This document shows, piece by piece, positions 3,850 to 54,934 of a DNA stretch of 64,000 bases. Position 1 is the first letter of the stretch; each line of letters opens with the position of its first letter. The position numbers were made by a program, and so were the translations under genes. The notes below the pieces were generated by a model. The model saw only the letters and a program-made list of their open reading frames with translations, made no database searches and was not told the origin of the DNA. Source of the stretch: Candidatus Babeliales bacterium (lineage in GTDB: Bacteria; Babelota; Babeliae; Babelales; JACPOV01); NCBI GenBank assembly GCA_050250855.1, contig JBFWNW010000004.1, positions 32,001-96,000 of the forward strand. The letters are read 5' to 3'.

Positions 3850-4742
3850 AAGTAGGATTTATAGGTTTAGGAAAAATGGGTTCTGCACTTGTAACGCGTG
3901 CATTGCAAGATGGTCACGAGGTTGTTGGCTTTGATACTCATAAAGAGAATTCACAAGATTTAAAGCAACATAAAAATTTTACGTTTGCACACGATTTAAA
4001 AAGTTTAGTAGATGACACACGGATACTCTGGCTCATGGTCCCGGCTGGCAAGATAGTGGATAACGTTCTTGATGAACTTAAGCCACATCTTGCTGGTCGC
4101 CCTATTATTGTAGATGGAGGCAATAGTAAATTTACTGACTCAATACGTCGCGCCAAAGAATTAGAAACGTGCGGCGTGCATTTTTTAGATTGCGGCACAT
4201 CGGGCGGTATACGTGGTAAAGAAATTGGTTTTTCATTAATGGTTGGTGGCAATCAAGATGCGTACGATGAAATAAAACCATTATTGCAATCATTAGCAGC
4301 ACCCAATGGTTTTGGGTACATGGGCCCTTCGGGTGCAGGGCATTATGTAAAAATGGTGCATAATGGCATTGAATATGCATTAATGCAAAGTTACGCAGAA
4401 GGATTTCATCTTTTAAAGGATGGACATTTTAAAGAATTAGACTTGGCAAAAATTTCTTCAGTTTGGTATAATGGCTCCGTCATTCGCTCATGGCTTTTAG
4501 AATTATGCCATGAAATTTTTCTGCACCCTGAAACATTACAAAAAATTTCAGGAAGCGTTGCAGAAAGCGGGATGGCTCAATGGACTATTGAAGATGCACA
4601 TAAGCATGACATTCCCGTTCAGCTCATTGAAGATGCGTTAGAGATTCGTTTTTGGTCACAGGAGACAGGAGGCAATTATGCTACAAAAGTTGTTGCAATG
4701 CTGCGCAATAAATTCGGCGGCCATGAAGTTCAAAAAAAATAG
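3846..4742 (+). CDS. gnd: 6-phosphogluconate dehydrogenase (short, YqeC-type)
   Basis: GLGKMG, DGGNS, GAGHYVKMVHNGIEY, LRNKFGGH; ATG 3846 overlaps zwf stop. Confidence 0.95.
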   Translation: MKVGFIGLGKMGSALVTRALQDGHEVVGFDTHKENSQDLKQHKNFTFAHDLKSLVDDTRILWLMVPAGKIVDNVLDELKPHLAGRPIIVDGGNSKFTDSIRRAKELETCGVHFLDCGTSGGIRGKEIGFSLMVGGNQDAYDEIKPLLQSLAAPNGFGYMGPSGAGHYVKMVHNGIEYALMQSYAEGFHLLKDGHFKELDLAKISSVWYNGSVIRSWLLELCHEIFLHPETLQKISGSVAESGMAQWTIEDAHKHDIPVQLIEDALEIRFWSQETGGNYATKVVAMLRNKFGGHEVQKK

Positions 4743-5031
4743 TTTACTGTTTATAGTTTTATGCAGTAGCCAGTTGGCATTAAGTTATCCACCACCATTT
4801 GAGTTGAGCAATAGAAAACCTCAACAACAAGAGATGTCAGAAAATGCTAGCACGAATCAGTTGCATAAGAAAAAAAATTTTGATTGTAATGATTGTTTAT
4901 CATGCAAGAAAAAAATGTGTGAGCGATTCTGGAAGCTAGACGAGGTAGTGTTTGCTGGACTCGCAATGGTTTTTCTAGGTGGTTGTAACTATTTATATGA
5001 ATCATGCAATGATAATACTCATTTAGAATAA
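4678..5031 (+). CDS. Signal-peptide membrane protein, array copy 1; 5' end overlaps gnd
   Basis: AGGAGG at 4667-4672 before ATG; hydrophobic leader ending QLALS; C-terminal TM segment with Cys; alternative start at 4723. Confidence 0.7.
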   Translation: MLQKLLQCCAINSAAMKFKKNSLLFIVLCSSQLALSYPPPFELSNRKPQQQEMSENASTNQLHKKKNFDCNDCLSCKKKMCERFWKLDEVVFAGLAMVFLGGCNYLYESCNDNTHLE

Positions 5032-5039
5032 GGTAAGTC

Positions 5040-5552
5040 ATGCTACAAAAATTGTTGCAATGCTGCGCAATAAATTCGGCGGCCATGAAGTTCAAAAAAA
5101 GTAGTTTACTGCTTATAGTTTTATGCAGTAGCCAGTTGGCAGTAAGTATGGATAAGCGCCAGCTAAAGCAGGGCCCAAAGGGTAATACTTTGAGTTCTTG
5201 CAAAGTTCTTGCAAAAAATGCAAAGAAAAATAAAAAACTTCAAGATTCAAAGAATTCTAAGATACAAAGAAATCGCCAGATGCCACAAGGAAACCGTCAG
5301 ATTTTGCCAAGAAACCTAGAACAAGGGGTTGAAGTTGTAGGAGAAATGGCGTTAATGCGAGATAATAATCATAATTATGCGCAATTTTTTAGATTTCCTG
5401 TGCTTTTTTCATTGATTATTTTTGTCATTTTCATGAATTTTAATAATGACACTAATAATACAAGACAAGAAATCCAGACTACAAAAGATTTCACTGGTCA
5501 TCATTTAGGATCACTTAAATCTACTTTTATGAATAATGAACCTAATCAATAA
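5040..5552 (+). CDS. Signal-peptide membrane protein, array copy 2
   Basis: Same 36-aa leader; basic N-region; hydrophobic FPVLFSLIIFVIF segment. Confidence 0.7.
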   Translation: MLQKLLQCCAINSAAMKFKKSSLLLIVLCSSQLAVSMDKRQLKQGPKGNTLSSCKVLAKNAKKNKKLQDSKNSKIQRNRQMPQGNRQILPRNLEQGVEVVGEMALMRDNNHNYAQFFRFPVLFSLIIFVIFMNFNNDTNNTRQEIQTTKDFTGHHLGSLKSTFMNNEPNQ

Positions 5553-5567
5553 AAACAGGAGACAATT

Positions 5568-5954
5568 ATGTTGCAAAAATTGTTGCAATGCGACGCAATA
5601 AATTTAGCAGACATGAAGTTCAAAAAAAGCTGCCTATTGCTTATGCTTTTATGCTGCAGCCAGTTGGCATTAAGTATGGAAGAAGGTGGTTTCCGTAAAA
5701 GAAAGCCTCAAGAACAACAGATGACACAGAGCGAAGATTCTGAGTTTCAAAAAGAAGTTGCTCGCCAGCGAGAAATAAACGAAGCAATACAAAAGCGGCA
5801 AGAAGCGGAATTTAGAGCAAGGGATAATGATTGTACTAATGGTTGTTTTTGTTTGATTGCTTTAGGGCTTATCTGTTTTGAGTTTTTGCTGCAACCTCTT
5901 CTTATTGCTTCATACTATAGTGACAGAGGAGATAACTGGCGTCCACCATATTAA
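5568..5954 (+). CDS. Signal-peptide membrane protein, array copy 3
   Basis: Same leader with AGGAG RBS; RKPQ-QQ motif shared with copy 1; Cys-containing TM segment. Confidence 0.72.
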   Translation: MLQKLLQCDAINLADMKFKKSCLLLMLLCCSQLALSMEEGGFRKRKPQEQQMTQSEDSEFQKEVARQREINEAIQKRQEAEFRARDNDCTNGCFCLIALGLICFEFLLQPLLIASYYSDRGDNWRPPY

Positions 5955-5985
5955 TCTTAAGATCTGAACCTTAAAATTAAATTTT

Positions 5986-6023
5986 AAAAAGGCTCAATGA
6001 TCAATGGTCATTGGGCCTTTTTT
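5986..6023 (+). terminator. Intrinsic terminator (probably bidirectional)
   Basis: aaaaaggctcaatga/tcattgggccttttt stem followed by T-run. Confidence 0.8.
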
Positions 6024-6070
6024 GCGTTATACTGCTAGGAAATTATTAACAAAAAACTTTAGTTATTTAT

Positions 6071-6796
6071 ATGGTATATTTTTTTCTTTTATTTTTTTTA
6101 TTGCATACGAGCACTGATCTATGCCAAGAGTATGAAACTTATTTTCAAGAATTTCCTCAAGCAATAAATTTTCACATTCTTAATTATGTGATATCAAATA
6201 CAACAAAAGCCAAGCATAAAATTGCAAAAATAAGCAACGTTAAGCCATTTGATGAACTCTGTGCATGGGAGTGGTCTGATACAGAGCATCCACGGCCTTT
6301 GCGTATAGAAAGTGCAATTCTTGCTAGTACAGAAATTAATACTAAAAATATTGCAGGAATATTGAAGCGTGCTGATCAATTGAAAGATGAAAAGAAAAAG
6401 CAAGAATGCTATAACGCCTTGAACGTTGCAGATCCTTGGTATATGCACTTCTATAATGCTCTTACGTGTGGCAGCTGTACTCTTTGCAGCTGTAAAACAG
6501 CTGACAAGCTTCATGCTGAACATGTTAAAAGTTATGAAAATTTAGTAAGGAAAAAATATGGTATTGAAGCGCTTGATGAAGAAAAAATTAAAACTATGTA
6601 TAATTTTAATAGTTATGTAGAGAAAAAAAAGAATGCTCAGTGCTTTGTACCACTATGTTTAGGAGGGACTTTTTTGAGTTTTGTTTGTTTTCCTTGCTTA
6701 ATAGTTTCACTCAGTGCTCAACTCTATGAAAACTATTGTTGTAGTTGTTGTGTGCGCTGCTGTCGTGAGTGTGATGAGGTTTCTTTTGCACACTGA
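6071..6796 (+). CDS. Secreted F-box-like, KYG-motif, Cys-rich protein
   Basis: Signal peptide; FQEFPQAINFHILNYV; YENLVRKKYGI; Cys-rich tail. Confidence 0.7.
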   Translation: MVYFFLLFFLLHTSTDLCQEYETYFQEFPQAINFHILNYVISNTTKAKHKIAKISNVKPFDELCAWEWSDTEHPRPLRIESAILASTEINTKNIAGILKRADQLKDEKKKQECYNALNVADPWYMHFYNALTCGSCTLCSCKTADKLHAEHVKSYENLVRKKYGIEALDEEKIKTMYNFNSYVEKKKNAQCFVPLCLGGTFLSFVCFPCLIVSLSAQLYENYCCSCCVRCCRECDEVSFAH

Positions 6797-6831
6797 ATTG
6801 CTAGAAAATTATTAATAAATCCAGGTTTTAC

Positions 6832-7488
6832 ATGAGAAGATTTTTTTTTCTAGTTGGTTTGTATAGTTCTTATTTTTTTTGCCAAGAAAAAGATCTCCAT
6901 AATCTTGCAGTCCAACCTTATGATATAAAAAATACTGTTATCGATTTTGTTATGCAGCTGCCACCCAATAGTTCATGGCAAGAAAAAAAAGCAGTGCTCA
7001 AAGATACGCTCAGTTTAATGCAGGTCAATAAAGAATTTAAGCAGTTAATAAATACTAAAAAAGAAAAGCTAGAGCTTCTTAAAAAAGTTGTACTATTATT
7101 ATCCCCTGATGCAAGACCGACTCCTAAAGATATAAAATTTTGCATGGATTATGCTGTACAACAGAATGATAAAATAGCTCTCGATCGTGCGTATCAAGCA
7201 ATTTCAATAGGCCAAAAAGATGCTTTTGATAGTGGCTCTTTGTTTGAATTATGCTGCTATTTTCCATCGACACAAGAAAAAAATCTTATCTTTACTAATC
7301 AGTTTAATGATGCAGTACAAAAAAAGTACGGATTACAAAAAATAGACTATGAGCAGTTGCAAAAATATGAAAGCTATGAAACTTTTATATTTTGGAGATG
7401 GATTTTCAATTGTATAGTATGCCCATGCTATGTAGGATGTAAGAATAAGCCTTGGCAAAAGGGCATGAAAGGAGCAAGAATTGAATAA
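6832..7488 (+). CDS. Secreted F-box-like, KYG-motif, Cys-rich protein
   Basis: LAVQPYDIKNTVIDFV...SLMQVNKEFKQL; FNDAVQKKYGL; CIVCPCYVGC. Confidence 0.7.
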   Translation: MRRFFFLVGLYSSYFFCQEKDLHNLAVQPYDIKNTVIDFVMQLPPNSSWQEKKAVLKDTLSLMQVNKEFKQLINTKKEKLELLKKVVLLLSPDARPTPKDIKFCMDYAVQQNDKIALDRAYQAISIGQKDAFDSGSLFELCCYFPSTQEKNLIFTNQFNDAVQKKYGLQKIDYEQLQKYESYETFIFWRWIFNCIVCPCYVGCKNKPWQKGMKGARIE

Positions 7489-8038
7489 GTATACTACGTT
7501 CTGGGGCATATTCTTTTTTTGTACGACCGTTTTCTGTATGGATGATTCTCAGTTTATGTTCCCTATAAATCTTCCCATGTCTGAGCATCAAATAGAACTT
7601 GATCCAACATGCTTTCAAAATATAGGGGATATGTGTACTTGTGTATTACCAGGACCTCATGAGAAAACACCCTTTCGAGCATATTGGGATGAAGAATGTT
7701 ATAAAGGATTTACCCAGCGTGTCCAAGAAAAATATGGCATTGATAAACCTATTCCAGAAAAAAGCTCCCATGATTATTTACACTATCGAGCATCAAGAGA
7801 AGAGTATTTGGGCTGTTGTTTGGCTGGGCTGATAAACTCTTTGAGATGTTGCTGCTGCCCTTGCTTGACAGCATATTCATGCTGCTGTGATGTTTGTCCG
7901 TGTTTAGATGTTTGCCCATGGGAAAGCTATGCATGCGAATGGTTTTTAAAACCTGTATGTTGTGATGAAGATGCGTGTATAGGGTATTCTTGTTCAGCGT
8001 GTTGTTTTTGTTGCTGCACCGTGTGTGATAGTCAATGA
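7481..8038 (+). CDS. Secreted very Cys-rich KYG-motif protein
   Basis: TTG start after AAGGAG; signal peptide; FTQRVQEKYGI; CCCCPC and CCFCCC runs. Confidence 0.7.
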   Translation: MNKYTTFWGIFFFCTTVFCMDDSQFMFPINLPMSEHQIELDPTCFQNIGDMCTCVLPGPHEKTPFRAYWDEECYKGFTQRVQEKYGIDKPIPEKSSHDYLHYRASREEYLGCCLAGLINSLRCCCCPCLTAYSCCCDVCPCLDVCPWESYACEWFLKPVCCDEDACIGYSCSACCFCCCTVCDSQ

Positions 8039-8106
8039 TTTACTAAAATCATACTCTTGAAATAGTTAGTTGAAATTTGATAATTGTATATAAAAAAGGG
8101 AATTAT

Positions 8107-8322
8107 ATGAATTATAAAGTAGTTGTACTGAATATTATTTTTTGTGCGTCCTGCTTATATGCGCAAGAAGATCAATCTATTCCATTACCAAAAAAAACAG
8201 ACGTAAATATTAAAAAAAATGGCTCTAAAGATCTTGAAAAATTGGGTGAGGCAGCAGCTTATGGCCTTCAAGAAGTATTAGCTATAGTTCAAAAGTACTA
8301 CCTTATGCTTACAACAGAATAA
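8107..8322 (+). CDS. Small secreted hypothetical protein
   Basis: ATG 8107 after AAGGG; signal-like ...SCLYA|QED. Confidence 0.55.
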   Translation: MNYKVVVLNIIFCASCLYAQEDQSIPLPKKTDVNIKKNGSKDLEKLGEAAAYGLQEVLAIVQKYYLMLTTE

Positions 8323-8345
8323 AGAATTCATTCCAAGGAGTTTGC

Positions 8346-8981
8346 ATGAAGATAATTGATATCAGTTGGCCTATCTCTGAAGCTATGACTGAATATAAGG
8401 ATGGCAAGTCGGTAAAACTTACGCCAACCAAAACTATGGAGCATAATGGCGTACGGGAATGGCTTTTGCAGATGAATAACCATACAGGAACGCATATAGA
8501 TGGCCCTGCGCATTTTCTTGCAACCGGGCAAACGATTGATAAGTTTGAATTGCAAAGTGTAATTGGTCCATGCCGCGTACTAGATCTAACCTCGGTGACC
8601 GAAAAAATAATGCCAGAAGATTTAGAGCCGTTTGGTATAGAAAAAAATGAAATTATTCTTTTAAAAACAACTAACAGTTTTCGCCAGCCTACCGATAATT
8701 TTACCTATAATTTTGCCTATATAAGTGACGCCGCTGCTCATTATCTTGCGCACGCACGCATAAAAGCGTTAGGCTTTGATTATCTTGGTATTGAGCGTAA
8801 CCAGCCAAACCATGATACGCACAAAGCATTTATGCAGTTTAATATTCCTATAGTGGAAGGATTGCGTTTAGGTGCAGTAAGTGCTGGTTCATATTTTTTT
8901 GTTTGTTTGCCACTGTATGCAGTTGGTCTTGATTCTGCACCGGCCCGTGCAGTGTTGCTTGAAGGGGTGAAAGTAACATGA
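8346..8981 (+). CDS. Cyclase family (kynurenine formamidase-like) metal hydrolase
   Basis: HTGTHIDGPAHF signature, GFDYLGI, IVEGL, DSAPARAV; AAGGAG RBS. Confidence 0.92.
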   Translation: MKIIDISWPISEAMTEYKDGKSVKLTPTKTMEHNGVREWLLQMNNHTGTHIDGPAHFLATGQTIDKFELQSVIGPCRVLDLTSVTEKIMPEDLEPFGIEKNEIILLKTTNSFRQPTDNFTYNFAYISDAAAHYLAHARIKALGFDYLGIERNQPNHDTHKAFMQFNIPIVEGLRLGAVSAGSYFFVCLPLYAVGLDSAPARAVLLEGVKVT

Positions 8982-9646
8982 AGAAGTTATGTATTATTTT
9001 TATGCTAGCAGGAACTTTGGGTGCAATGGAGCCGAAGAAATCTGACAAAGGTAAAAAAGAAACAACGCCATTGCTTAAAAAAGAGTCTAATTCATCTCAA
9101 TCGAGTGACTATCATAATTCAGGATTTGAGGTTTCTTCTTCTAGTGATGCTAGTTTGCTTAAGCCAACAACGCAAATGATGGAAGTTGAAGAGTGTGAAA
9201 AGAAGTATGAGCAAAGAAAAGAAATAATGCAGAAAGCTATAGCTGGCATAAAAGCATGTAGAAATAACATTGACAATGTGAAGCTTACTACTGATTATAG
9301 CTTTATTATTTGGGTTGCAAAAGATAAAGCTGAGGAATTTAAAAAATATTACTATCAGCTTGTTGCGGTGCAAAACTTACAACATAAAGATGAAAAGTGG
9401 GAAACATATCCTGTTTCTGGTAATTGTTGTTATAGCGGCACTCTTATAGAAAGAAAGACAGCTTCTATACGTCCAGTATTAGATGAAAACTGTTTGAGAA
9501 ACGAACTTGGTGATTTAGGTTGTTTACTCTATCGTGTTTTAACGGTATCTGAGTATGATGAATCATTGATGTTTTATTCTGATTTTCCTCGTAACGTTTC
9601 ACGAAATACCTTAACGGAGTATGTTAAAGAATCAAAACGTCATTAA
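8978..9646 (+). CDS. Secreted hypothetical protein
   Basis: MKK + hydrophobic core + LGA|MEP; ETTPLL motif; ATGA overlap. Confidence 0.75.
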   Translation: MKKLCIIFMLAGTLGAMEPKKSDKGKKETTPLLKKESNSSQSSDYHNSGFEVSSSSDASLLKPTTQMMEVEECEKKYEQRKEIMQKAIAGIKACRNNIDNVKLTTDYSFIIWVAKDKAEEFKKYYYQLVAVQNLQHKDEKWETYPVSGNCCYSGTLIERKTASIRPVLDENCLRNELGDLGCLLYRVLTVSEYDESLMFYSDFPRNVSRNTLTEYVKESKRH

Positions 9647-9666
9647 TAAAAAAGAGGGGGACGGGG

Positions 9667-10696: not shown

Positions 10697-10704
10697 GATT
10701 GAAA

Positions 10705-11268
10705 TTAAGAATCACCCAAAGCTTTTTTAGTCAAAACGCGCATAATTCCTTGAGCAAACAGTTCTGCAGCTTTGGGACCTACGGCCGTTACTACAAGGCC
10801 ATCAGTGCAAATATCATGGCCCTTTGCATACTCTACGCCATTTCCTTTAAAAATAGTTTCTAATGCCAAATCATCATCCCAGCCCGTTGCCTTTTTGCCA
10901 GCAAGAGCATTTGCTTTTGCAAGAATGCGTGGTGCAATGCAAATAGCGCCATAAGGAATAGCATGTTTTTTTGCTTCAGATGCAATTTTGTAACTTATTG
11001 AATTATCAAGACAATCCATAGCACCAGGGCCGCCAATAAAAAATACGCCATCATAATCTGTTGGCTTAAGTTTATCAAGCGTACTATCAACGAGAGTGGT
11101 GGATTGATCAGATGCTACAGCACCACCGGGTTTATCACTTGCCGTAATAACCTTAATACCGTAACTTTCTAAAATTTTTTTGGGAACACCATATTCAATG
11201 GGTTGGTAGCCGTTTGATGCAATAATAAATACAACTTTTTTACCTTTGAGGTATTCTTTATGTTCCAT
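10705..11268 (-). CDS. DJ-1/PfpI family protein
   Basis: YDGVFFIGGPGA, GAICIAP nucleophile elbow, GKKAT. Confidence 0.92.
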   Translation of the reverse strand: MEHKEYLKGKKVVFIIASNGYQPIEYGVPKKILESYGIKVITASDKPGGAVASDQSTTLVDSTLDKLKPTDYDGVFFIGGPGAMDCLDNSISYKIASEAKKHAIPYGAICIAPRILAKANALAGKKATGWDDDLALETIFKGNGVEYAKGHDICTDGLVVTAVGPKAAELFAQGIMRVLTKKALGDS

Positions 11269-11366
11269 AGATTTTCCTTTTTTTTATAGTTTCATTTTAG
11301 CAGAATAAAAATTAATGTCCTGCTTGTCTACCTGGGACAACCGGTCTCATTAGAAGTATTTTTTAA

Positions 11367-11394
11367 TTGACATTATTACCTGGTATAGTACCAT
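11367..11394 (+). promoter_or_regulatory. Putative sigma70 promoter of DUF4097-like gene
   Basis: TTGACA at 11367 with TACCAT 16 nt later; also extended -10 TGgTATAGT at 11381. Confidence 0.45.
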
Positions 11395-11431
11395 ATTGTA
11401 ATATATGTTTTATAGTTTAAGGTGATTCTAC

Positions 11432-12400
11432 ATGAAAATAAAGCTATCTGTTGCGCTATTCTTTGCGTCTATTTGTAATCCTGTTTTTTCTTGGTGGCCT
11501 TTTGGCTCCTCAGGTAGTAGTTATGAGATTATTATCAATGGCAAAAGATATAGTAGTGAAAATAGTTGTTTTTCTAGCCAATTGACTGAAAAAGAGACTA
11601 GGACTGAGTCCGCATCAAATATTAAGAATCTTGATGCTAAGACTTCATCGGGAAAGATTGATGTTGTTGGCCAACCGTATATATCTGATGCAATAATTGA
11701 TATGGTTTTTAAAGCATCTCAAAAAGAAGAGATTGAACGCATGAAGAAAGCAGTTATTATTCAAAATAAAAACAATACGCTTTTTGTTAAAGATAATATA
11801 CCGCCCGATTGTTTTAGTTGTTCTATTGATTTTAATGTAAAAGTACCACAGCAAATTAATATTGATGCTTCTGCAGCTTCAGGTAATATTTCGGTTAAGG
11901 CTGTAACGGGTTTTCTTAAGTTTTTAACAGCAAGTGGAGATGTTACTACTAAGCATATAGGTGGTGGTATACAAGGAAAAACAAAGAGTGGCAATATTTA
12001 TGCCGAAAATATAAAAGGTGATGCAAATCTTAAAAGTTCTAGTGGTAAAATCTTTGCTGGTTTTGTTCAGGGAAATCTTTTTGCTACGAATTCTTCAGGA
12101 TCTATAAAAGCCCAAGATATTAAAAAGAACATTAGAACAGAAACAACTTCAGGTGATATTAAGGCTACAAACATAGGTGGCAATGCTGAATGCGCTAGCT
12201 CTAGTGGGAGTATTTTTATGGATGCTGTTAGAGGATCGCTTTGGGCGCGAGCTATTTCTGGAAGTATTAATGCTTCTAAGGTAAGAGATAGCTATGATTT
12301 CAAAACAACTTCAGGAAATATTTTTATTCAAAAGCATCCAGAGTTTAAAGGAGCTTTTCAACTAGCAAAAACAGTTTCAGGAAGAGTAAAATATAAATAA
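11432..12400 (+). CDS. Secreted DUF4097-like beta-strand repeat (adhesin-like) protein
   Basis: Signal peptide; about nine 19-aa repeats centred on (T/S)SG(D/N/S)I. Confidence 0.85.
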   Translation: MKIKLSVALFFASICNPVFSWWPFGSSGSSYEIIINGKRYSSENSCFSSQLTEKETRTESASNIKNLDAKTSSGKIDVVGQPYISDAIIDMVFKASQKEEIERMKKAVIIQNKNNTLFVKDNIPPDCFSCSIDFNVKVPQQINIDASAASGNISVKAVTGFLKFLTASGDVTTKHIGGGIQGKTKSGNIYAENIKGDANLKSSSGKIFAGFVQGNLFATNSSGSIKAQDIKKNIRTETTSGDIKATNIGGNAECASSSGSIFMDAVRGSLWARAISGSINASKVRDSYDFKTTSGNIFIQKHPEFKGAFQLAKTVSGRVKYK

Positions 12401-12414
12401 AAATATTTAATTAA

Positions 12415-13374
12415 TCATTTTTTCATTTTAGCAGAATAAAAATTAATGTCCTGCTTGTCTACCTGGGTTTGTATATGTAAAGCTGGAAAGGTAATATCTT
12501 GGTATGCCAATCTTTTTTCTAAAGGCGTAATAGTGATAGCAGAGCCAATCTGTTTTTTATAGATTCCTAGTCTGTGTAATGTTATATTTTTTTGTTCCAC
12601 AATTTTTTTTACCTGGCCATATGCGCGGTACAGCTTTTTGCTGCCATTGCCTTGCCAAGAAATCAGATAAAGATTTTTTACCTGCAGATGCATACACAAA
12701 GCGCATACCGCCTCAAAAGTAAGAATACTAGGCTGTGCAATAATAACATGCTCCAAGCAGATAGAGCCGAATTTTTTATGGAGTGTTGGTGCCAGTGTAT
12801 ATTCAATCCATGAAGGTGTTGATGCATAATGGCCAAGATAGCCAGGATCAATAAATACTAATCCATCTTCCTTTTTCATAACAGTAACCGTGCCGCGATT
12901 GCACGGTAGTTCAAGATAAGCTGAGCTTTCTTGCAGCCATGCTAAATATCCTATAAACAAATACAGCAATAATAAAAAGCTCCAGATTGCACGAACCATG
13001 CTTTTAGTATAATGCAGAATAAAAAATGCGCTTGCGACAAGCAATAGAAGTACTAACAAAGAAGGTTGCTTTAAACTAATGAGCCATCCTTGTGTATGAA
13101 ATGCTAAAAGAGAGCGCCAGCTATGCACAAGGTATTCAAGAAGATATACAAGCCAACTATTTGGCAGATGCAAAAGTTCTGCAAAAAAAAGCAATGAAGA
13201 GAGTAACAAAAATGCCATCAATAGCGGTGTGAAAATAAGATTAGCAAGAGGGCTCATCACCGATAACGGCAAGCCCCAACATATAAGAATAGGCAAAGAC
13301 CCCAGAGTAATAAAAAGCTGTACGTATAAAAAACGGATAAGGTAATGGTATAAAGCAGCGCTTTTTATGTTCAT
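12415..13374 (-). CDS. ComEC/Rec2-related membrane protein (partial Competence domain + degenerate MBL-like domain)
   Basis: QLFITLGSLP..SPLANLIFTPL TM pattern, FIDPG; no HxHxDH motif. Confidence 0.65.
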   Translation of the reverse strand: MNIKSAALYHYLIRFLYVQLFITLGSLPILICWGLPLSVMSPLANLIFTPLLMAFLLLSSLLFFAELLHLPNSWLVYLLEYLVHSWRSLLAFHTQGWLISLKQPSLLVLLLLVASAFFILHYTKSMVRAIWSFLLLLYLFIGYLAWLQESSAYLELPCNRGTVTVMKKEDGLVFIDPGYLGHYASTPSWIEYTLAPTLHKKFGSICLEHVIIAQPSILTFEAVCALCMHLQVKNLYLISWQGNGSKKLYRAYGQVKKIVEQKNITLHRLGIYKKQIGSAITITPLEKRLAYQDITFPALHIQTQVDKQDINFYSAKMKK

Positions 13375-17831: not shown

Positions 17832-18671
17832 TTACGATAATAGTTCTTCAAGCTGCTTTTTATTATTTTGAGATATAAATGTTGCGCGGCTCAGTAAATC
17901 CTTAGCAGTTTCGCCGTAGTTATTTTTTAATGTTTTTTGTGCACCATGGTTTAATAATGCTTGTATTATATCAACCACATTTTTTTGTGTATGCACCGTT
18001 GCTTTTTGTACAACATACATTAACGGCGTGTAACCCTTATGATTTTGTATATTGCAATCTGCACCCCATGCAAGAAGCTGGTCGGTAGCTTCTTTATGCA
18101 CACCCCATACGGCCCAATGTAAAGCTGTTTGTTTATTCTTATCTTGTTGATTAATAAGACATTTTTTTGTACCAAAAAGAAGTTTCATGATTTCAAGCTT
18201 ACCAGCTCCAGAGGCCCATTGAAAAGGTGTTTTTTCTTCATTATCTTTCAATTCGGGATTTGCACCGTTATCAAGAAGAAGCTGTGCCATACCAGTATGT
18301 CCTTTGTAACTTGCCCATGCAAGAGGAGTTTGTCCTTTGTTATTACGTGCATTTATTTGTACTTTTGGTTGTTTCAACAAGAGGGTAACAATATTAAAAT
18401 GATTATTGCCTGCGCTCCAATGCAAAGCGGTTTCGCCATTTTTATCAGTGCTATTTAAACAAGAAGGATTGGCTTCAAGTTTTTGGTTGACGGTGTCAAA
18501 ATCTCCATGGCCAGCGGCCCATTGAATAGAAATGTCATTAGATTTTTTATTAGGTGTTTGAAATGTTACTTTTGGTTTTTGGGGTTTTTTCTTTTTTGTT
18601 TCATCCATAGGCTGCGCTGTTTGAGCTGCAGTAAGGATGAAAAGAAAACCATAGCATAGTAAATTTTTCAT
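17832..18671 (-). CDS. Secreted ankyrin-repeat protein (paralog of 19900-20778)
   Basis: GETALHW, GQTPLAWA, QTALHWA, GYTPLMY repeats; signal peptide. Confidence 0.95.
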   Translation of the reverse strand: MKNLLCYGFLFILTAAQTAQPMDETKKKKPQKPKVTFQTPNKKSNDISIQWAAGHGDFDTVNQKLEANPSCLNSTDKNGETALHWSAGNNHFNIVTLLLKQPKVQINARNNKGQTPLAWASYKGHTGMAQLLLDNGANPELKDNEEKTPFQWASGAGKLEIMKLLFGTKKCLINQQDKNKQTALHWAVWGVHKEATDQLLAWGADCNIQNHKGYTPLMYVVQKATVHTQKNVVDIIQALLNHGAQKTLKNNYGETAKDLLSRATFISQNNKKQLEELLS

Positions 18672-18926: not shown

Positions 18927-18962
18927 ATAAGTATAGCATAACATTTTATGTATGCATGATTC

Positions 18963-19011
18963 AAAAAAGAAAAAATAATGGATAGGCAGTTATTCTGCCT
19001 ATCCATTATTT
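18963..19011 (-). terminator. Intrinsic terminator
   Basis: 17-bp perfect stem aaataatggataggcag/ctgcctatccattattt, T-run on minus strand. Confidence 0.85.
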
Positions 19012-19936
19012 GAATTATTTGTTTAGAGATAAAAGATTTAAAAGTTCTGTTTATTCAAATACACCTTTTACGCAGCAGGTACATGGAAAAAATAACCAAC
19101 CATAAAACGTTTTGCCTTCTTCAAAATTTCTTTTTCCAGTAGAATCATATTTGTCATGACAACAGTCATGTGCTATTAGAGAGCCCACACAGCAAAGAGG
19201 GCAAAAGATCAGTTGTGTGGCGGTACGTGCACTACACATAAGAAGCCATATTCCGGTGCCTAAATAGTATTTTCTTGATTTTTTATATTCTTCATAATTT
19301 CCATGTTCCAATGTACTAGAAGAAGCGATGCCATATTTTTGTTTAATGCGTTTGGTGTAGTTTTCTTGGCAGATTTCATTCCATTTTTCTTCTTCTTCCG
19401 GCCATCGCATACACCATGGCACGGTGCAAATACAGCAATCTTGGCAAGTATCCAAACAGTCGGATTGATAATCCATTTTTTTGTAAGCTTTTTGCATTGT
19501 TATTTGATCATTATTTTTTTGAGCAATTTCAATAATTTTTTTTGCATTTTTTGGTGTTAATCTTAAATGTTGAGCAAGAAGCTTTTCAAGTTTGGGACTT
19601 CTTGAGTTTGAGAGTGGCTCAAGGTTGCTACACAATGTATGAAAATGCTTATTAGTTTTTGCCATTGCTTTAATTGTTTTTAAACTATCTTCACTGTCAG
19701 TGGCAATATATTCTAAGATGTGCAGTTGCACAGGAAGCGGCACCTCATTCAGATAATCATACGCAACTATTTCTTGTTTTGAATCTTTTAACAAAGGCGT
19801 AGTTTCTGATGTCATTGCATTAAAAGAATATGCTGCGGTAATTATTGTTAGGTACGTTATACATTTATTCATATTTATCCCTGATAGTGTGATTTTGAAT
19901 TATTTGTTTAGAGATAAAAGATCTAAAAGTTCGGTT
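19009..19936. repeat. 43-bp direct repeats (19009-19051, 19894-19936) flanking the F-box-like gene
   Basis: tttgaattatttgtttagagataaaagat(t/c)taaaagttc(t/g)gtt, 41/43 identical; second copy spans the ankyrin gene 3' end and stop. Confidence 0.92.
19051..19872 (-). CDS. Secreted F-box-like, KYG-motif, Cys-rich protein
   Basis: FNA|MTSETTPLL; LNEVPLPVQLHILEYI...AMAKTNKHFHTLC; YTKRIKQKYGI; Cys clusters. Confidence 0.8.
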   Translation of the reverse strand: MNKCITYLTIITAAYSFNAMTSETTPLLKDSKQEIVAYDYLNEVPLPVQLHILEYIATDSEDSLKTIKAMAKTNKHFHTLCSNLEPLSNSRSPKLEKLLAQHLRLTPKNAKKIIEIAQKNNDQITMQKAYKKMDYQSDCLDTCQDCCICTVPWCMRWPEEEEKWNEICQENYTKRIKQKYGIASSSTLEHGNYEEYKKSRKYYLGTGIWLLMCSARTATQLIFCPLCCVGSLIAHDCCHDKYDSTGKRNFEEGKTFYGWLFFPCTCCVKGVFE

Positions 19937-20778
19937 CTATTGTTTTCTGATATAAATTTTGTAAAATTTACTACATGATCAGCAGCAGATTCATTAAATT
20001 TATTTTTTAATGATGGATTTGCACCATGTTTTAACAATAACTGTATAATAGCAACTACATCTTTTTGAGTGAGTACACTTGCTTTTTGTGTGACACGCAT
20101 TAAAGGCGTGGTCTCATTATTATCAGTTGTATTACAATCAGCATTCCAAGCAAGAAGCTGTTCTACGGCTTTTGTATGAAGACCCCAGACTGCCCAATGC
20201 AGAGCGGTTTGACCAAAAGTATCTTTTTGATTAATAAGACATTTTTTTGTGCCAAAAAGAAGTTTCATGATTTCAAGCTTGCCAGCTCCAGAGGCCCACT
20301 GAAAAGGAGTTTTTCCTTCAACGCCTCCTAGTTCAGGATTTGCGCCAGCATCAAGAAGAAGCTGTACAATATCAGTATGTCCTTTGTAACTTGCCCATGC
20401 AAGAGGAGTTTGTCCTTTGTTATTACGTGCATTTATTTGTACTTTTGGTTGTTGTAGCAAGAGCTCAACAACTTTTTTTTGGTTATTGCTAGCAGCCCAA
20501 TGTAAAGCAGTTTCGCCACGTTTATCTGTGTTGTTTATTATAGATGGACTATCGATAAGCCATTCTTGGACCGTATCATAGTGACCATGACCAGCTGCCC
20601 ATTGAATAGTTATATCATCAAACTTTTCTACCATGGGTTTTTGTTCATAAAAATTCTGGCTCGTTTTAGCTTGAGGCATATATTTTTGTTGCGCTCGAGA
20701 AAGTTTTCTTTCCATAGCTTGCATTGATCCAGCAACAACAAGAAGGAAAAGAAGGGGATATTTTGTATAAGTATTCAT
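19900..20778 (-). CDS. Secreted ankyrin-repeat protein
   Basis: GETALHWAA, GQTPLAWA, GKTPFQWA, GQTALHWA; MQA|MER. Confidence 0.95.
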   Translation of the reverse strand: MNTYTKYPLLFLLVVAGSMQAMERKLSRAQQKYMPQAKTSQNFYEQKPMVEKFDDITIQWAAGHGHYDTVQEWLIDSPSIINNTDKRGETALHWAASNNQKKVVELLLQQPKVQINARNNKGQTPLAWASYKGHTDIVQLLLDAGANPELGGVEGKTPFQWASGAGKLEIMKLLFGTKKCLINQKDTFGQTALHWAVWGLHTKAVEQLLAWNADCNTTDNNETTPLMRVTQKASVLTQKDVVAIIQLLLKHGANPSLKNKFNESAADHVVNFTKFISENNRTELLDLLSLNK

Positions 20779-40252: not shown

Positions 40253-40867
40253 TTAAAGATTTTTCTTATCAAGAAACTCTTTTACAAGTCTTTTATTAAG
40301 TTCTAGCTTTTTTTCATCAAATAGCTCTTGTATTTTGTTTGCGCAGGAACTAGCACGTTGACTGGAAGGAAGATGATCCCTGGAATAATCAAGCACTTGT
40401 TGAGCTGTTAAAGCTTCTTTAGGCAGTGAGTAGTTTTCATGAGGGTTTCCTCCGGCTTGAAGTAAGAGGTGGAGACCAGCTAAAGGACATTGTTTAGTTA
40501 AGACTGTTTGAATAAGAGTTGAATAAACAGTCTCTCCCATAATATCTTTTGTATAATCAAGATGAGTATCATATTTTGGTATTACTGTGTTGGGGTGATA
40601 ACCTAAATCAAGAGCATTAAGAGCCCCTTCTCTAGGATCAATCAATATGGAGATTCTTAAATCTCTTAAGGAACTCTTTGTTGCGAAATCGAAAAGTTCT
40701 TTACTTTCTTGACAATAAAATGAATTTTCATTACGTAGGCAGCTTGACGCATAATTATTTTTTAGTTTTTGCAGAATCTTTTTTGTTTTTTGGAGATCTG
40801 AATTTTGCTCTGAAGCCTGAGCTGCAGCTAGAGAAAGTAGTAATAATAGCGCTAAACATTTTTTCAT
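40253..40867 (-). CDS. Secreted paralog family protein (copy 3 of 3)
   Basis: MKKCLALLLLLSL leader; LG.HPNT, CPLAGL, LTAQ, KIQELFD. Confidence 0.85.
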   Translation of the reverse strand: MKKCLALLLLLSLAAAQASEQNSDLQKTKKILQKLKNNYASSCLRNENSFYCQESKELFDFATKSSLRDLRISILIDPREGALNALDLGYHPNTVIPKYDTHLDYTKDIMGETVYSTLIQTVLTKQCPLAGLHLLLQAGGNPHENYSLPKEALTAQQVLDYSRDHLPSSQRASSCANKIQELFDEKKLELNKRLVKEFLDKKNL

Positions 40868-41551
40868 GATTTATAATTCCTATATTAGTAGAGATTAAAG
40901 CTTTGTTTTATCAAATAGCTCTTGTATTTTATCCATGCATGAATTAACTTCATGATGTTTTTTAGAATAGTTATCTCTGTATTGCTGCTCTCCATTAAGA
41001 AATTCTTGAGCAGTCAAAATAGGAGGAAAGCTAGGTTCTTTTCCTTGTCTTTTAGCTTCTTTATGCAAAGGATGGTTAGCCATTTTATTAGGATTTCCAC
41101 CATTTTTAATTAAGAGTTGAAGGCCAGCTAAAGGACATTCTTTTTTATAATATGCTTCTTCAAGGGTTCCCCATGCGGTATGGCCTAGAATATCAGTCTC
41201 TCCCCATGGAATATAATGCTTAGGCATTAACGTATTAGGTTTGGCTCCTAAGGTAAGAGCTAATGAAGCTCCTTTTTCTGGATTAGCATGGATGGTATCT
41301 AATAATGAACGTACAGCTTTCTTTTTTTCAGAACTATAGAGAAGCTTACATGTTGTGTATTCAGAAGACTCTTTTCCCAGAGTAGTTTTAAGAGATTCAC
41401 ACTTGCTTTTTTGTTCAAGCAGCTCTTTTCTTTTTTCTTCCATTTTTTTACGCATATCTTCTGAAGCCTGAGCAGCCGATAAAGAAAGTAGTAATAATAG
41501 CGCTAAACATTTTTTCATGATTTATAATTCCTATATTAGTAGAGATTAAAG
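40809..41551. repeat. 92-bp direct repeats (40809-40900, 41460-41551): upstream stop + intergenic + signal peptide
   Basis: 88/92 identical, including 69 consecutive identical nt. Confidence 0.93.
40895..41518 (-). CDS. Secreted paralog family protein (copy 2 of 3)
   Basis: Same leader and motifs. Confidence 0.85.
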   Translation of the reverse strand: MKKCLALLLLLSLSAAQASEDMRKKMEEKRKELLEQKSKCESLKTTLGKESSEYTTCKLLYSSEKKKAVRSLLDTIHANPEKGASLALTLGAKPNTLMPKHYIPWGETDILGHTAWGTLEEAYYKKECPLAGLQLLIKNGGNPNKMANHPLHKEAKRQGKEPSFPPILTAQEFLNGEQQYRDNYSKKHHEVNSCMDKIQELFDKTKL

Positions 41552-42160
41552 ATTTTTCTTATTAACTAACTGTTTTCTTTTATCAAGTCTCTGCTTTTTT
41601 TCATCAAACAATTCTTGTATTTGGTTAGCGCAAGAAATAACAGGTTTTGTTTTATAATCAGAGTCTGCTCTCAAGCTTGTTAGAAGCTCTTGAGCTGTTA
41701 AAGTTCTAACATTGTTTTCGCTAAAGCTTGATCCTGGGATCTGTAATAGAGACCCTGTTTTATGCCAAGCGTAAGTTTTTGTTGCATTAGGATCGCCTTT
41801 TTTTTGAAGTAAAAGCTTAAGTCCTTCGAGGGGGCATTCTTCTATAGACTTAGCTCGCGTAAGAATTGAAAAAGTAGTGGCGCCCATAACATCAGTATCT
41901 TCTTTTTTATCAAAAGGCAAAATGATCGGCACCACAGTATTTGGATGAATCCCTAAATCAATGGCTGTTTTTGCACCATGATCAGGGTCCAATAAGATCA
42001 TTAATGTTCCAAGTCCTAGGGTTTGAATATTATTTACATGACGAGTCAATTTTTCATGATCTTTTTCCAATTTTTGCAATTCAGCTTTTCTTGTTTGTTC
42101 GTCCATAGCCTGAGCAGCAGATAAAGAAAGTAGTAACAGTAATGCTAAACATTTTTTCAT
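41546..42160 (-). CDS. Secreted paralog family protein (copy 1 of 3)
   Basis: Same leader (AQA|MDE) and motifs; alternative start 42178. Confidence 0.85.
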   Translation of the reverse strand: MKKCLALLLLLSLSAAQAMDEQTRKAELQKLEKDHEKLTRHVNNIQTLGLGTLMILLDPDHGAKTAIDLGIHPNTVVPIILPFDKKEDTDVMGATTFSILTRAKSIEECPLEGLKLLLQKKGDPNATKTYAWHKTGSLLQIPGSSFSENNVRTLTAQELLTSLRADSDYKTKPVISCANQIQELFDEKKQRLDKRKQLVNKKNL

Positions 42161-42204
42161 AGTTATTTCTCTTTTCATAGTTATAGGGCCTCCATTTCCC
42201 CGTT

Positions 42205-43396: not shown

Positions 43397-43512
43397 AGTT
43401 TGTCCGTAAATTATTAATTATCGTTCGAATGCTTCGACAGGCTCAGCACGAACGGTTTTAATGTAAAGTATTGCCTCTCCGTTCGCCCTGAGCTTGTCGA
43501 AGGGTGCGAACG
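43397..43512. repeat. REP-like doublet, family A, with one TIR-like end
   Basis: agtttgtccgtaaattattaatt-cgttcgaatgcttcgacaggctcagcacgaacgg..ccgttcgccctgagcttgtcgaaggg. Confidence 0.88.
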
Positions 43513-46631: not shown

Positions 46632-46716
46632 GTTCGCACCCTTCGACAAGCTCAGGGCGAACGTGGGACTTATAAAAATAACCGTTCGTGCTGAGCTCGT
46701 CGAAGTATACGAACGG
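46632..46716. repeat. REP-like doublet, family A
   Basis: gttcgcacccttcgacaagctcagggcgaacg..ccgttcgtgctgagctcgtcgaag. Confidence 0.9.
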
Positions 46717-49717: not shown

Positions 49718-49725
49718 AGTTTAGA

Positions 49726-52178: not shown

Positions 52179-52199
52179 CTATAGTCCTTTTTTAAAGGA

Positions 52200-52350
52200 G
52201 TTCGCACCCTTCGACAGGCTCCCAGACTTCGCACAATGCTACGTCGGGCATGGCAGGGCGAACGGAAAAAAATATTTGCATTAAACCGTTCGTGGTGAGG
52301 AGTCCGGCGTAGTTTTTAACGAAAGCCAGGACGTCTCGAATCCATGAACG
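52200..52350. repeat. Hybrid family A/B REP-like doublet with two nested modules
   Basis: A arm interrupted at gct^cag by 52221-52253; B arm carries ccggcgtag..gaaagccagg. Confidence 0.85.
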
Positions 52351-52356
52351 TCAAAA

Positions 52357-53277: not shown

Positions 53278-53316
53278 AGTACCTGTACTATAGCAAAAAA
53301 AATGGCTTTTGTACAT

Positions 53317-53348
53317 AAAAAGTCCCCGGCTTTTGATGGCCGGGGCTG
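53317..53348 (-). terminator. Intrinsic terminator (homologous to 54156-54190)
   Basis: ccccggc-ttttgatg-gccgggg stem, T-run on minus strand. Confidence 0.8.
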
Positions 53349-53381
53349 TAGAATCAAAAAATTAAACTTATGATTGTCTAT

Positions 53382-54026
53382 CTATTTTTGGTTTTCAAGA
53401 TCTGCAGCAATATCCAATATTGCATCGATAAGTTCTAGAACTTGTTCTTTGAGTTGGGCTACAGCAGGAGAATAATCAGGAATATGTTTAACTAGGTTCT
53501 TGCTTATTTCGAGCATTTCAATCTCTTTATGGTTACGAACTATTTGATTGAGTAGGGGGCTGCTAATGATCATACCTAACTGCATATGAAAGCCTTTTAA
53601 ATAATTTATAGCCTTTTTTTCGTTTGGAAAGAGATCTTTTGCAGCGTTTTGGTTTATCTCGGATAGGAATTCTTCTTTAGCTTTAGCCACTTTTGTTTTG
53701 CATTCTTCCTTAGACTCTCGATCTATAAAAATTTTTTTTAGTCTTTTTACTTCCCTAGAACCATGATCGGGTATGTTTTTTAGTTCTAAAAGCATGTATT
53801 GAGAAGGAAATGCTTCACAAGGAGCATCATTAAACACAATATTGGCAGCTTCAATGATTTTTAGATGTATATTGACTCTTTCTTCTCTTAATTTCAGAAT
53901 AGAATCATCTTTTGTTGGATATAGTATTTTAGCGCGTTCTATTTCTCCAGAAGCAAAAAGATCGTTTGAGCCTTTAAGCTGAAAAGCTATACAAAGCAGG
54001 GCAAGAGAAAAAATCTGTTTTTTCAT
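53382..54026 (-). CDS. Secreted hypothetical protein
   Basis: MKKQIFSLALL leader. Confidence 0.75.
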   Translation of the reverse strand: MKKQIFSLALLCIAFQLKGSNDLFASGEIERAKILYPTKDDSILKLREERVNIHLKIIEAANIVFNDAPCEAFPSQYMLLELKNIPDHGSREVKRLKKIFIDRESKEECKTKVAKAKEEFLSEINQNAAKDLFPNEKKAINYLKGFHMQLGMIISSPLLNQIVRNHKEIEMLEISKNLVKHIPDYSPAVAQLKEQVLELIDAILDIAADLENQK

Positions 54027-54155
54027 AAGAAGCCTTTATGTAACAGTGGTTTTGTAAAGTATTGTACTATGACCAAAATATCATTTTTTTTTTTTATATC
54101 AAGTAAAAGTTTTTTGGATAGTATGTGCTAATTGGCATTTTAGAGAATTGGGGTA

Positions 54156-54190
54156 TAAAAATACCCCGGCTTTTGAGGGCCGGGGGTGTG
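54156..54190 (-). terminator. Intrinsic terminator
   Basis: ccccggc-ttttgagg-gccgggg stem. Confidence 0.8.
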
Positions 54191-54206
54191 TTTTTCTAAG
54201 CGGCAG

Positions 54207-54767
54207 TTATTTTATTCCTTGGCCAACATCTGCAATTGTACTACGTAGCTTTAAAAATTCTTTCCACAAAAATGCATTAAGATCTTCTTCTTCAGGAAAC
54301 TGTTTTACAATTTCTGGATGTTCCTCAATATAACGATTTTTGAATACTAAAAATTTTTCAGCAAATTTTTGCTGTAAGCACTCATTTTGCGAGGGGTATG
54401 GTTTTAGTTTACTCGCCAATTTTTTAGCGTCAGCCATGAGTGTTTTTGCGACTTCCTTTTTGATCATATTGTCTTTTGAAAGAATAGGAAATGTATCAAG
54501 TCTATTAATAGTACTATCTATTTTATCTATCGAGCGTTGAAAGCTAGCAATTTCTTTTTCTGATAATGAGCTATAGCTTAATGAACCACATGTTTTGTAT
54601 TTTTGATAGTTATGAGAGGTTTTTGCTAAAGGCTCGATATTTTTTCTGAGTATATAAGAACTTTCTAGCGCTACATTGTGTGCATTATCAATGGATGATT
54701 CTAGACTAAAAATATTGTCCGAGTAACACGTTATAAGGAGTGCAAGCGCTAAAATCTGTTTTTTCAT
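54207..54767 (-). CDS. Secreted hypothetical protein
   Basis: MKKQILALALL leader. Confidence 0.75.
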   Translation of the reverse strand: MKKQILALALLITCYSDNIFSLESSIDNAHNVALESSYILRKNIEPLAKTSHNYQKYKTCGSLSYSSLSEKEIASFQRSIDKIDSTINRLDTFPILSKDNMIKKEVAKTLMADAKKLASKLKPYPSQNECLQQKFAEKFLVFKNRYIEEHPEIVKQFPEEEDLNAFLWKEFLKLRSTIADVGQGIK

Positions 54768-54934
54768 AAAAAACCTTTATGCTGTAATGATTTTGTAAAA
54801 TAGTATCAGTTAACAATGCCATTTTTTATAGTTTCTGCAACTAAAATATTCTTTGGCTTTTAGGCTCGTTGCAGCTTTTTCTTTTTTCTCTTACACTAAA
54901 GCAATATAAAGTTACAGATAAAAAGGTTTTTTCA

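Follow-up and report, generated by a model that had tools for sequence, protein, structure and literature searches.

Short repeats beside exported-protein genes in a Babeliales genome: probable scars of tandem duplication and gene-end insertion

Dependentiae are uncultured, reduced parasites of protists, and the route by which they gain new host-interaction genes without mobile elements is poorly known. A 64,000-nucleotide stretch of a Candidatus Babeliales genome (contig JBFWNW010000004.1, positions 32,001 to 96,000; G000:C4:32001-96000, here called the window) raises this question at five places, where orphan genes for exported proteins are bounded by short conserved DNA. These lie at the end of gnd (locus 1), of a ComEC-like gene (locus 2) and of an ankyrin gene (locus 3), and within groups of signal-peptide genes at 40-42 kb (locus 4) and 53-54 kb (locus 5). 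An earlier interpretation, made from the letters alone (the sequence-only reading), had explained all five by a single integron-like system, in which one-gene cassettes are gained, swapped or lost by recombination through short homologies at gene ends. Our analysis points elsewhere: the five loci are probably the scars of two ordinary, recombinase-free routes of gene gain, namely tandem duplication and insertion that leaves a long duplicate of the target.

Repeats on a collinear backbone

All five repeat sets, bounding exported-protein genes as described, were found again by a repeat search of the window at the coordinates given below. They are indeed unrelated to each other: each derives from its own neighbour, and no motif is common to all. 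At four loci the repeat takes in the 3' end of an intact upstream gene (gnd, the ComEC-like gene, ankyrin gene 2 and the upstream paralogue at 40.9 kb), and at loci 1 and 4 the identity ends at an apparent signal-peptidase site (...ALS^ and ...AQA^; such sites were judged by eye throughout), both as the sequence-only reading had it.

The genome, G000, comprises 1.22 Mb in 11 contigs with 36% G+C. The open reading frames (ORFs) of the window were compared by tblastn with the syntenic contigs of a same-genus relative, G001 (~60-75% amino-acid identity), and a same-family relative, G002. The whole window proved to be one backbone collinear with both, with ~11 blocks found only in G000 that take in all five repeat loci; the view of the orphan exported-protein genes as lineage-specific additions was borne out. 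A Pfam scan of the 66 window ORFs gave no integrase or transposase domain, again in line with the earlier claim, and no known RNA family reached its gathering score in the window. Elsewhere in G000 there are two matches to the tyrosine recombinase family PF00589, both on other contigs in open frames of 304 and 328 amino acids, which from size alone we take to be XerC and XerD, and no matches to the rve-type transposase family PF00665. RecA, DprA and one ComEC-family gene are present.

Chance can be excluded for the repeats of loci 2 and 3, since the 47-mer and the 43-mer each occur exactly twice in the 1.22-Mb genome. The locus 2 insert (11307-12450) was reproduced by independent contigs, which came from two public runs within a single study, and both repeats of locus 3 were spanned by independent contigs (18880-20402 and 18880-20114; two runs, one study), which together make an assembly artefact unlikely. 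In one run the insert had a depth of 13 where the flanks had 15.5-17.3; the other gave 7.8 for the insert and 6.4-8.2 for the flanks. In run X3 the depth over it was low, within that run's patchy cover, and carries no weight as evidence. These contigs (k=31; three runs of the study) break inside the 47-bp repeat, so that empty and filled alleles look alike in them; no sign of excision, circles or swapping came from data of this kind, which are unable to show it. Graph joins, or k-mers collapsed or duplicated in metagenome assembly, could in principle create such repeats, and the small contig G000:C8 (3879 bp) is built from pieces of 97-536 bp that recur at 100% identity, as a collapsed repeat or an artefact of the assembly graph might be. 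For the five loci this explanation is nevertheless extremely improbable, given the independent contigs with depth like the flanks, the imperfect repeats at four loci and the same layouts in other genomes.

Tandem families of small signal-peptide genes

Locus 4 is a tandem array of three signal-peptide paralogues of 204, 207 and 210 amino acids (40253..42178, minus strand), which align from end to end at 37-42% identity (blastp E 1e-19 to 1e-28). The array is missing between mnmG and the next backbone gene in both relatives, where the gap measures 164 bp (G001) and 234 bp (G002). Its repeat, at 40809..40933 with a partner at 41460-41584, extends over 125 nucleotides (nt) at 90% identity with a 92-nt core at 95.7%, and consists of the 3' end of one unit, a 27-nt spacer and the signal-peptide codons of the next; no other DNA in the array is as alike. 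A 54-nt signal-peptide repeat is present in three copies, and the 5' patches are 86-89% alike, against 52-60% for the rest. Kinship of the three genes with the next backbone gene (42205-43011) was considered and rejected (z below 0.7).

Locus 1 lies on the plus strand behind the gnd-like 6-phosphogluconate dehydrogenase gene (3834..4742; Pfam NAD_binding_2 and 6PGD), which is 72% identical to its G001 orthologue and whose last 65 nt belong to the first copy of the repeat. This repeat, 3 x 108 nt at 4678, 5040 and 5568, has second and third copies that are 96% and 81% identical to the first. Copy 1 (4678..4785) joins the gnd tail to the signal-peptide codons of small gene 1 (4723..5031), which starts within the 3' end of gnd and ends in a hydrophobic segment. 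In copy 2 (5040..5147) the gnd-tail frame is still open (tblastn E 1.9e-11), and the repeat leads into small gene 2 (5085..5552), whose mature part is unrelated to those of genes 1 and 3 in any frame; a frameshift origin of this part was tried by comparing all frames and rejected (best z 2.7). Copy 3 (5546..5675) shows gnd-tail homology from 5546 onwards (tblastn E 1.7e-10 over 28 residues) and leads into small gene 3 (5613..5954), with a mature part related to that of copy 1 and of the G001 orthologue.

G001 has a single copy, whose start lies inside the last gnd codons and whose product shows the signal peptide, charged stretch and hydrophobic tail seen in G000. The mature parts of copies 1 and 3 score z 5.0 and 5.8 against it and z 2.8 (protein) and z 6.2 (DNA) against each other. 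The overlap with gnd is ancestral to the two genomes and, among nine relatives' gnd loci inspected, limited to their genus. Since the ribosome site and start of the ancestral gene sit inside gnd, each duplicated copy carries a gnd tail. The three genes are mosaics, because copies 1 and 2 go together by their 5' patch (96% alike, the mature parts being without an alignable stretch) and copies 1 and 3 by their mature part.

The wider spacer between gnd and the cyclase gene (window 4743-8345; G001:C13:119900-122300) is a growth zone. The gap is 9 nt in genome G027 and 768 bp in G002, and the spacer holds four small genes in G001 and seven in G000, among them three weakly related cysteine-rich genes.

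At locus 5, two minus-strand signal-peptide genes of 214 amino acids (gene A, 53382..54026) and 186 amino acids (gene B, 54207..54767) share a leader and first codons (53994..54061, partner 54735-54802; 68 nt, 79%), and each is followed by a sequence scored as a terminator (53324..53345 and 54164-54185), within a 35-nt repeat at 53315 and 54155 (89%). Their mature parts are only marginally alike, with a z of 2.9 that 7 of 500 shuffles reached. We regard the pair as probably an old tandem duplicate, with less confidence than for loci 1 and 4. The site itself, between a rhodanese-domain gene and pheT, is variable: it measures 160 bp and is empty in G002, holds a different pair of genes in G001 and the locus 5 genes in G000. 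By eye, the G001 pair (G001:C13:83700-84850, corresponding to window 53317-54868) resembles an AbrB/Phd-type antitoxin and a Doc/Fic-type toxin.

The claim that the cargo differs while the bounding DNA is conserved accordingly applies to the unrelated second gene of locus 1; it does not apply to the full-length paralogues of locus 4 or to copies 1 and 3 of locus 1, and locus 5 lies between. We propose that small signal-peptide genes duplicated in tandem at loci 1 and 4, and probably at locus 5, and that their mature parts then diverged fast. The likeness of the patch formed by 5' leader and signal peptide, which at locus 4 extends to the entire unit junction, would either have persisted or have been restored by unequal crossing-over or gene conversion. 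Each duplicated unit of locus 1 would have copied the gnd tail along with a gene that starts inside gnd.

Genome-wide counts bear on this proposal. Adjacent same-strand paralogues make up 96 of 1251 adjacent ORF pairs in G000 and 43 of 1123 in G001, the G001 counts of pairs and of repeat clusters covering 1.115 Mb; G000 has undergone a recent burst of local duplication. Local DNA-repeat clusters number 59 in G000 against 28 in G001. Among 76 analysable pairs, nucleotide identity in the first 25 codons and in the rest was 0.78 and 0.63 for 37 signal-peptide-like pairs, 22 of which differed by more than 0.1, and 0.61 and 0.57 for the 39 others. Third-position identity at identical residues was 0.82 over codons 1-10 and dropped to 0.65 past codon 100, a gradient part of which may reflect codon bias in the start region.

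A genome-wide enrichment of repeats at gene ends had been offered as a check of the cassette idea. Among 184 intervals (short local repeats not internal to one ORF) it was weak at stop codons, with 19 overlaps against 12.4 ± 3.2 for random placement (maximum 23), and clear at start codons, with 33 against 13.2 ± 3.5 (2.5-fold; maximum 25 in 1000 placements). In 18 pairs picked for a strong 5' patch, the patch ended within ~3 residues of the apparent cleavage site in seven, four of these from the window; it reached 121-263 nt into the mature part in another seven, ended inside the signal peptide in one and was uninformative in three. What had been called reusable signal-peptide modules is a real tendency towards alike 5' patches, with a boundary that is not tied to the cleavage site. 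Judged from their mosaic identity, these patches are probably the product of partial gene conversion in tandem families.

Two further observations concern the same genes and their surroundings. A small residue followed by Met-Asp/Glu after the hydrophobic core (...SYAME, ...VQAMD, ...SFGMEPE) occurs in 62 of 453 signal-peptide-like ORFs of G000 against 17 of 418 in a control window of the same proteins, and in 52 of 369 in G001 against 6 of 345. Examples in the window are 5085-5552, 5613-5954, 41546-42178, 19900-20778, 17832-18671, 8978-9646 and 9667-10506. The mature proteins would then begin with Met-Glu or Met-Asp; we found no published description of this pattern. The genome also carries two dispersed families of intergenic palindromic repeats, one of ~35 nt with dozens of copies and one of ~50 nt with ~17 copies, represented in the window at 18730-18900, 24154-24204, 25919-26002, 43424-43512, 46633-46715 and 52188-52221.

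Single genes inserted at gene ends

Loci 2 and 3 have a different structure: they are true one-gene insertions between unique copies of the neighbour's 3' end. At locus 2 the neighbour is a minus-strand ComEC-like gene (12415..13374; PF03772, E 4.9e-4, below the cut-off) with orthologues in G001 (59%) and G002 (36%). In the relatives it is directly followed by a DJ-1/PfpI gene, which in G000 lies at 10705..11268 (minus strand). The gap between the two genes is 140 bp in G001 and 79 bp in G002, so the site is empty in both. In G000 it has received a piece of 1084 bp, which leaves a 47-bp copy within the intact 3' end of the ComEC-like gene (12421..12467) and, 21 nt upstream of the DJ-1 start, an identical displaced copy of its last 15 full codons (11290..11336). 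The 47-mer has its counterpart at the 3' end of the orthologous gene in G001. The working copy and the G001 sequence share the ending AAAAAATGA; the displaced copy runs on differently.

The cargo of locus 2 (11432..12400) is on the plus strand, opposite to its neighbours, has 95 nt of upstream DNA of its own and encodes a signal-peptide protein with DUF4097-type beta-strand repeats; its best database matches, at 31-35% identity, contain PF13349. A search of nine same-family genomes did not recover it, no close relative of it was seen in the collections of genome contigs and metagenome contigs searched, and the 47-mer had no exact match in the metagenome contigs.

At locus 3 the neighbour is ankyrin gene 2 (19900..20778, minus strand; Pfam), a paralogue of ankyrin gene 1 (17832..18671, minus strand) at 60% amino-acid identity. 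The inserted piece of 842 bp lies between the 43-bp copy that belongs to ankyrin gene 2's intact 3' end (19894..19936) and a displaced copy at 19009..19051 (95%; tblastn E 8.6e-4), which comprises the last 11 full codons, the stop codon and six further nt and runs directly into an intrinsic terminator with a 17-bp stem (18973..19011, minus strand). The cargo (19051..19872, minus strand) encodes a cysteine-rich orphan of 273 amino acids with a hydrophobic N-terminus. It has a paralogue on contig C1, 36-40% identical, and was found in no other genome among the 31 searched; flanks common to the cargo and this paralogue were looked for, and there are none. The 3.5-kb ankyrin block around locus 3 is wholly absent from G001 and G002. 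Pfam scans gave no mobility domain in the cargo of either locus, and terminal inverted repeats at loci 2 and 3 amounted to chance-level pairs only. In the window, ten further ends of backbone genes abut blocks found only in G000, and none of them showed such a remnant (best tblastn E 0.02 or worse); the footprint is therefore occasional, not the rule.

A screen for similar insertions used unique direct repeats of 30-140 bp, 250-5000 bp apart and not within paralogues. In G000 it returned locus 2, a 45-bp pair on contig C1 around a gene for a 164-amino-acid membrane protein, and an 88-bp pair resembling a dispersed hairpin element; locus 3 was removed by the paralogue filter on account of the two ankyrin genes. 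Three of 22 candidates were kept in G001: 48 bp at the end of rtcB around a 331-amino-acid orphan, 49 bp at a promoter-like stretch around an 80-amino-acid gene, and 72 bp (98.6%) followed by a 115-bp diverged in-frame cca tail around an 838-amino-acid orphan. From another relative, G005 (800 kb), came 15 candidates, of which five passed a looser filter and two were judged to be inserts. One has 53 bp at the end of a gene for a pyridoxal phosphate (PLP) enzyme, with a longest identical run of ~17 nt, around a 435-amino-acid orphan; the other has 40 bp plus 18 weaker bp up to the stop codon at the end of the PBP2 gene, around four genes. Taken together, the eight cases in three genomes have eight different target sequences; the repeat measures 40-53 bp in seven of them and touches a gene 3' end in six.

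The content of the PBP2 insert is of separate interest. This 3-kb piece (G005:C1:548684-551806) encodes a 563-amino-acid protein whose C-terminal domain is of the colicin-type Cytotoxic family (PF09000, 29.8 bits). An ankyrin protein and two small ORFs accompany it, in the arrangement of a polymorphic toxin and candidate immunity genes.

In the four gene-end cases of the relatives, the displaced copy differs from the working copy in a coding-like manner: 5/6, 5/5, 5/8 and 13/42 differences are synonymous, and there is no stop codon. Under a null that puts all changes in a neutral copy, this excess has P = 0.0026, 0.0002, 0.0022 and 0.0002, respectively. Neutral decay would not leave such divergence, whereas two coding alleles would, which disfavours a duplicate made by a staggered cut. 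For the relatives' cases, and by analogy for loci 2 and 3, we suggest that the incoming DNA came from a diverged relative and carried its own version of the gene end. It may have been joined by homologous pairing at the gene end followed by an illegitimate joint on the other side, or alternatively by a single Campbell-type crossover of a recircularised piece. At loci 2 and 3 a single foreign gene lies beside the gene end, with a 43-47-bp second copy of that end on its far side.

Three other origins of these footprints were weighed. A working integron-like system, in which one-gene cassettes excise as circles through their flanking repeats, re-enter at gene ends and swap cargo, would accord with the empty and alternative-cargo sites in relatives, with flanking repeats of 43-53 bp at seven sites in three genomes and with displaced ends that resemble alleles of another lineage, as expected if the repeat travels with the cargo. 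RecA, DprA and the ComEC-family gene are in place, and such a life cycle has been proposed for restriction-modification genes (Furuta et al., PMC2853133). We consider it quite unlikely all the same: no site was seen to hold differing cargoes within one pair of repeats, plain tandem paralogues make up three of the five loci, the ten other insertion borders are bare, several repeat pairs are too diverged for a RecA crossover (such as the 53-bp pair of G005), and there is neither a common motif nor a recombinase. Less probable again are decayed site-specific islets of the prophage, integrative and conjugative element (ICE) or cis-mobilizable element (CIME) type, in which an integrase would have put in place an element whose attachment (att) site was its own copy of the gene 3' end, and would later have been lost together with most of that element. 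Elements with integration sites at gene ends, such as phage 21 and e14 in icd, classically leave a duplicated gene 3' end whose incoming copy differs at synonymous sites; six of our eight cases touch a gene 3' end. The eight different targets in three genomes speak against this origin, as do the lack of an integrase in any insert scanned, the presence in G000 of only the two presumed Xer recombinases, and inserts of 0.4-3 kb with no coding content other than the cargo.

A transposase- or casposase-like enzyme that nicks with a stagger of ~45 bp, followed by gap filling, would yield a true target-site duplication and would account for the tight repeat length and for repeats that are target-derived and unrelated to each other. 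This we judge very improbable in view of the coding-like differences in the four relatives' cases and of locus 2, where it is the working copy, not the displaced one, that shares its ending with G001; this fits import, and a simple cut requires the reverse. Terminal inverted repeats, an rve-type transposase in the genome and a mobility domain in the window are likewise missing. The evidence favours homology-anchored import from a diverged relative over a staggered cut, without being decisive.

Several points weigh against our explanation by duplication and homology-anchored import. Repeats of 40-53 bp in seven of eight cases, near the 46-47 bp of the literature, are not predicted by it. Gene conversion was not observed; we infer it from mosaic identity. 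The copies at loci 2 and 3 differ at 0 and 2 positions, too few to show an allelic origin, and a mixed null is more lenient than ours (~0.01 for the 5/5 case, by hand estimate). The polarity of the cca tails is unsettled: the single orthologue from the same genus resembles the displaced tail more (27 vs 22 of 37), but 16 of 21 orthologues score higher with the working tail, and the outgroup comparison for rtcB is uninformative (37 vs 36 of 48 matches, own count). The nearest database relatives of the DUF4097 cargo are named after other phyla and no donor context was found for it, the gene calls of the screen were crude longest ORFs with filters of our own choosing, and the paralogy at locus 5 is marginal.

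The tight repeat length invites a bolder version of import, which we hold to be unlikely. It would see a ruler of ~45 bp in a competence- and RecA-driven, recombinase-free process of gene addition, in which single genes would bring along a stub of a conserved neighbour, its last ~15 codons, and use it as a portable landing site in relatives that share a host cell. The same process would lie behind the 46-47-bp duplications of Haemophilus and Thermus and would be a main source of secreted host-interaction proteins in Babeliales, with leader and signal-peptide patches copied between neighbours.

Of the sequence-only reading, the idea of one-gene additions through short homologies at gene ends holds for loci 2 and 3, where there is no mobility gene and homology is the best-supported route; it does not extend to the tandem arrays of loci 1, 4 and 5. 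With three of five loci being ordinary arrays of paralogues and ten borders without a remnant, a single system behind all five was not upheld.

Relation to known systems

The setting fits a reduced parasite: the genome is small, has many ankyrin genes and encodes a eukaryote-type ubiquitin hydrolase. The latter, a ubiquitin C-terminal hydrolase (UCH, E 8.6e-44; window 24292-25569, minus strand), is kept at the same spot in G001 and G002 at 38-39% identity. By a crude rule, 453 of 1262 G000 ORFs, about one-third, have a signal-peptide-like start; in Dependentiae such orphan genes form a large part of the gene content, and for Chromulinavorax 44% of coding sequences are reported to encode orphan proteins with signal peptides (PMC6561590). 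A description of tandem conserved-leader arrays or gene-end duplications in Dependentiae was not found in the open-access literature.

The closest counterpart of loci 2 and 3 is insertion with long target duplication, defined for restriction-modification genes by Furuta, Abe and Kobayashi (2010; PMC2853133). In the relevant passages of that paper the cases have unique repeats of more than 30 bp and no mobile element and come mostly from naturally competent species; the repeats include ones of 46, 46 and 47 bp, two touch a gene 3' end, and the authors state that a life cycle of release and re-infection lacks experimental evidence. Loci 2 and 3 share with them the lack of a mobility gene and the unique direct repeats of more than 30 bp, and locus 2 also the single target in a relative: locus 2 has an insert absent in relatives, unique 47-bp repeats and no mobile element, and locus 3 has unique 43-bp repeats and no mobile element. 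They differ in cargo, orphan surface or secreted proteins here and restriction-modification genes there, and in host, here a parasite-type Babeliales genome. The coding-like divergence of the displaced copy is likewise not reported in those passages (PMC2853133).

Homology-facilitated illegitimate recombination, proposed for the displaced toxin gene ends of Rhs, contact-dependent inhibition (CDI) and type VI secretion system (T6SS) effector-immunity arrays (Kirchberger et al., 2017, PMC5361080), is similar in its combination of a homology anchor with an illegitimate joint, in the displacement of older parts downstream, where they stand as orphans, and, as that account presents it, in the constant 5' and variable 3' parts. 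There, however, the anchor is the 5' part of one toxin family at dedicated loci, whereas in our cases unrelated housekeeping genes supply the anchors with their ends, and no more than 15-20 codons are displaced.

The tandem loci recall multigene families with conserved leaders and hypervariable mature parts, such as the Vlp genes of Mycoplasma, the OspE/F-like leader peptide genes of Borrelia and the conotoxins. In both, clustered paralogues share a near-identical promoter, leader and signal peptide, and similarity drops near the cleavage site. Our families differ in being orphans of unknown function, and no phase-variation machinery or repeats of that kind were seen with them. Homology beyond the repeat, as in a tandem array, is seen at locus 4 and, at locus 1, between copies 1 and 3 only, with a marginal score at locus 5 (z 2.9); the greater likeness of the 5' patch includes silent sites, at loci 1 and 4 as well as in the genome-wide gradient. 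The reference numbered 37 in the restriction-modification study discussed above is said to be Nobusato et al. 2000.

With integrons the loci share the accumulation of single promoter-proximal genes at defined spots. The integron-like label was not supported by any of the defining features considered, namely a recombinase, attC-like sites and promoterless cassettes. No IntI, attI or attC was seen (no attC model was run) and the repeats are unrelated. Several cargo genes bring their own leader and terminator, as both genes of locus 5 do, and the locus 2 cargo lies on the opposite strand. As to islands and CIMEs, no integrase and no att core common to several sites was seen in the window or in the inserts scanned; as to transposons and casposons, there were no inverted repeats and no PF00665 match, Cas1 not having been searched for. 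A diversity-generating retroelement, which pairs a reverse transcriptase with repeats that differ at adenines, does not fit either: the two copies of the 47-bp repeat are identical, those of the 43-bp repeat differ at two sites, and the window ORFs contain no reverse-transcriptase domain.

Overall, the window displays two routes to new host-interaction genes, one of heavy local duplication with mosaic 5' ends and one in which single genes enter at gene ends and a short displaced stub remains. The relatives' stubs diverge as a second allele would, which speaks for import anchored by homology rather than for a staggered cut; the literature passages on this footprint leave its mechanism open. Both routes are known from the systems compared here, and no new kind of system is needed.

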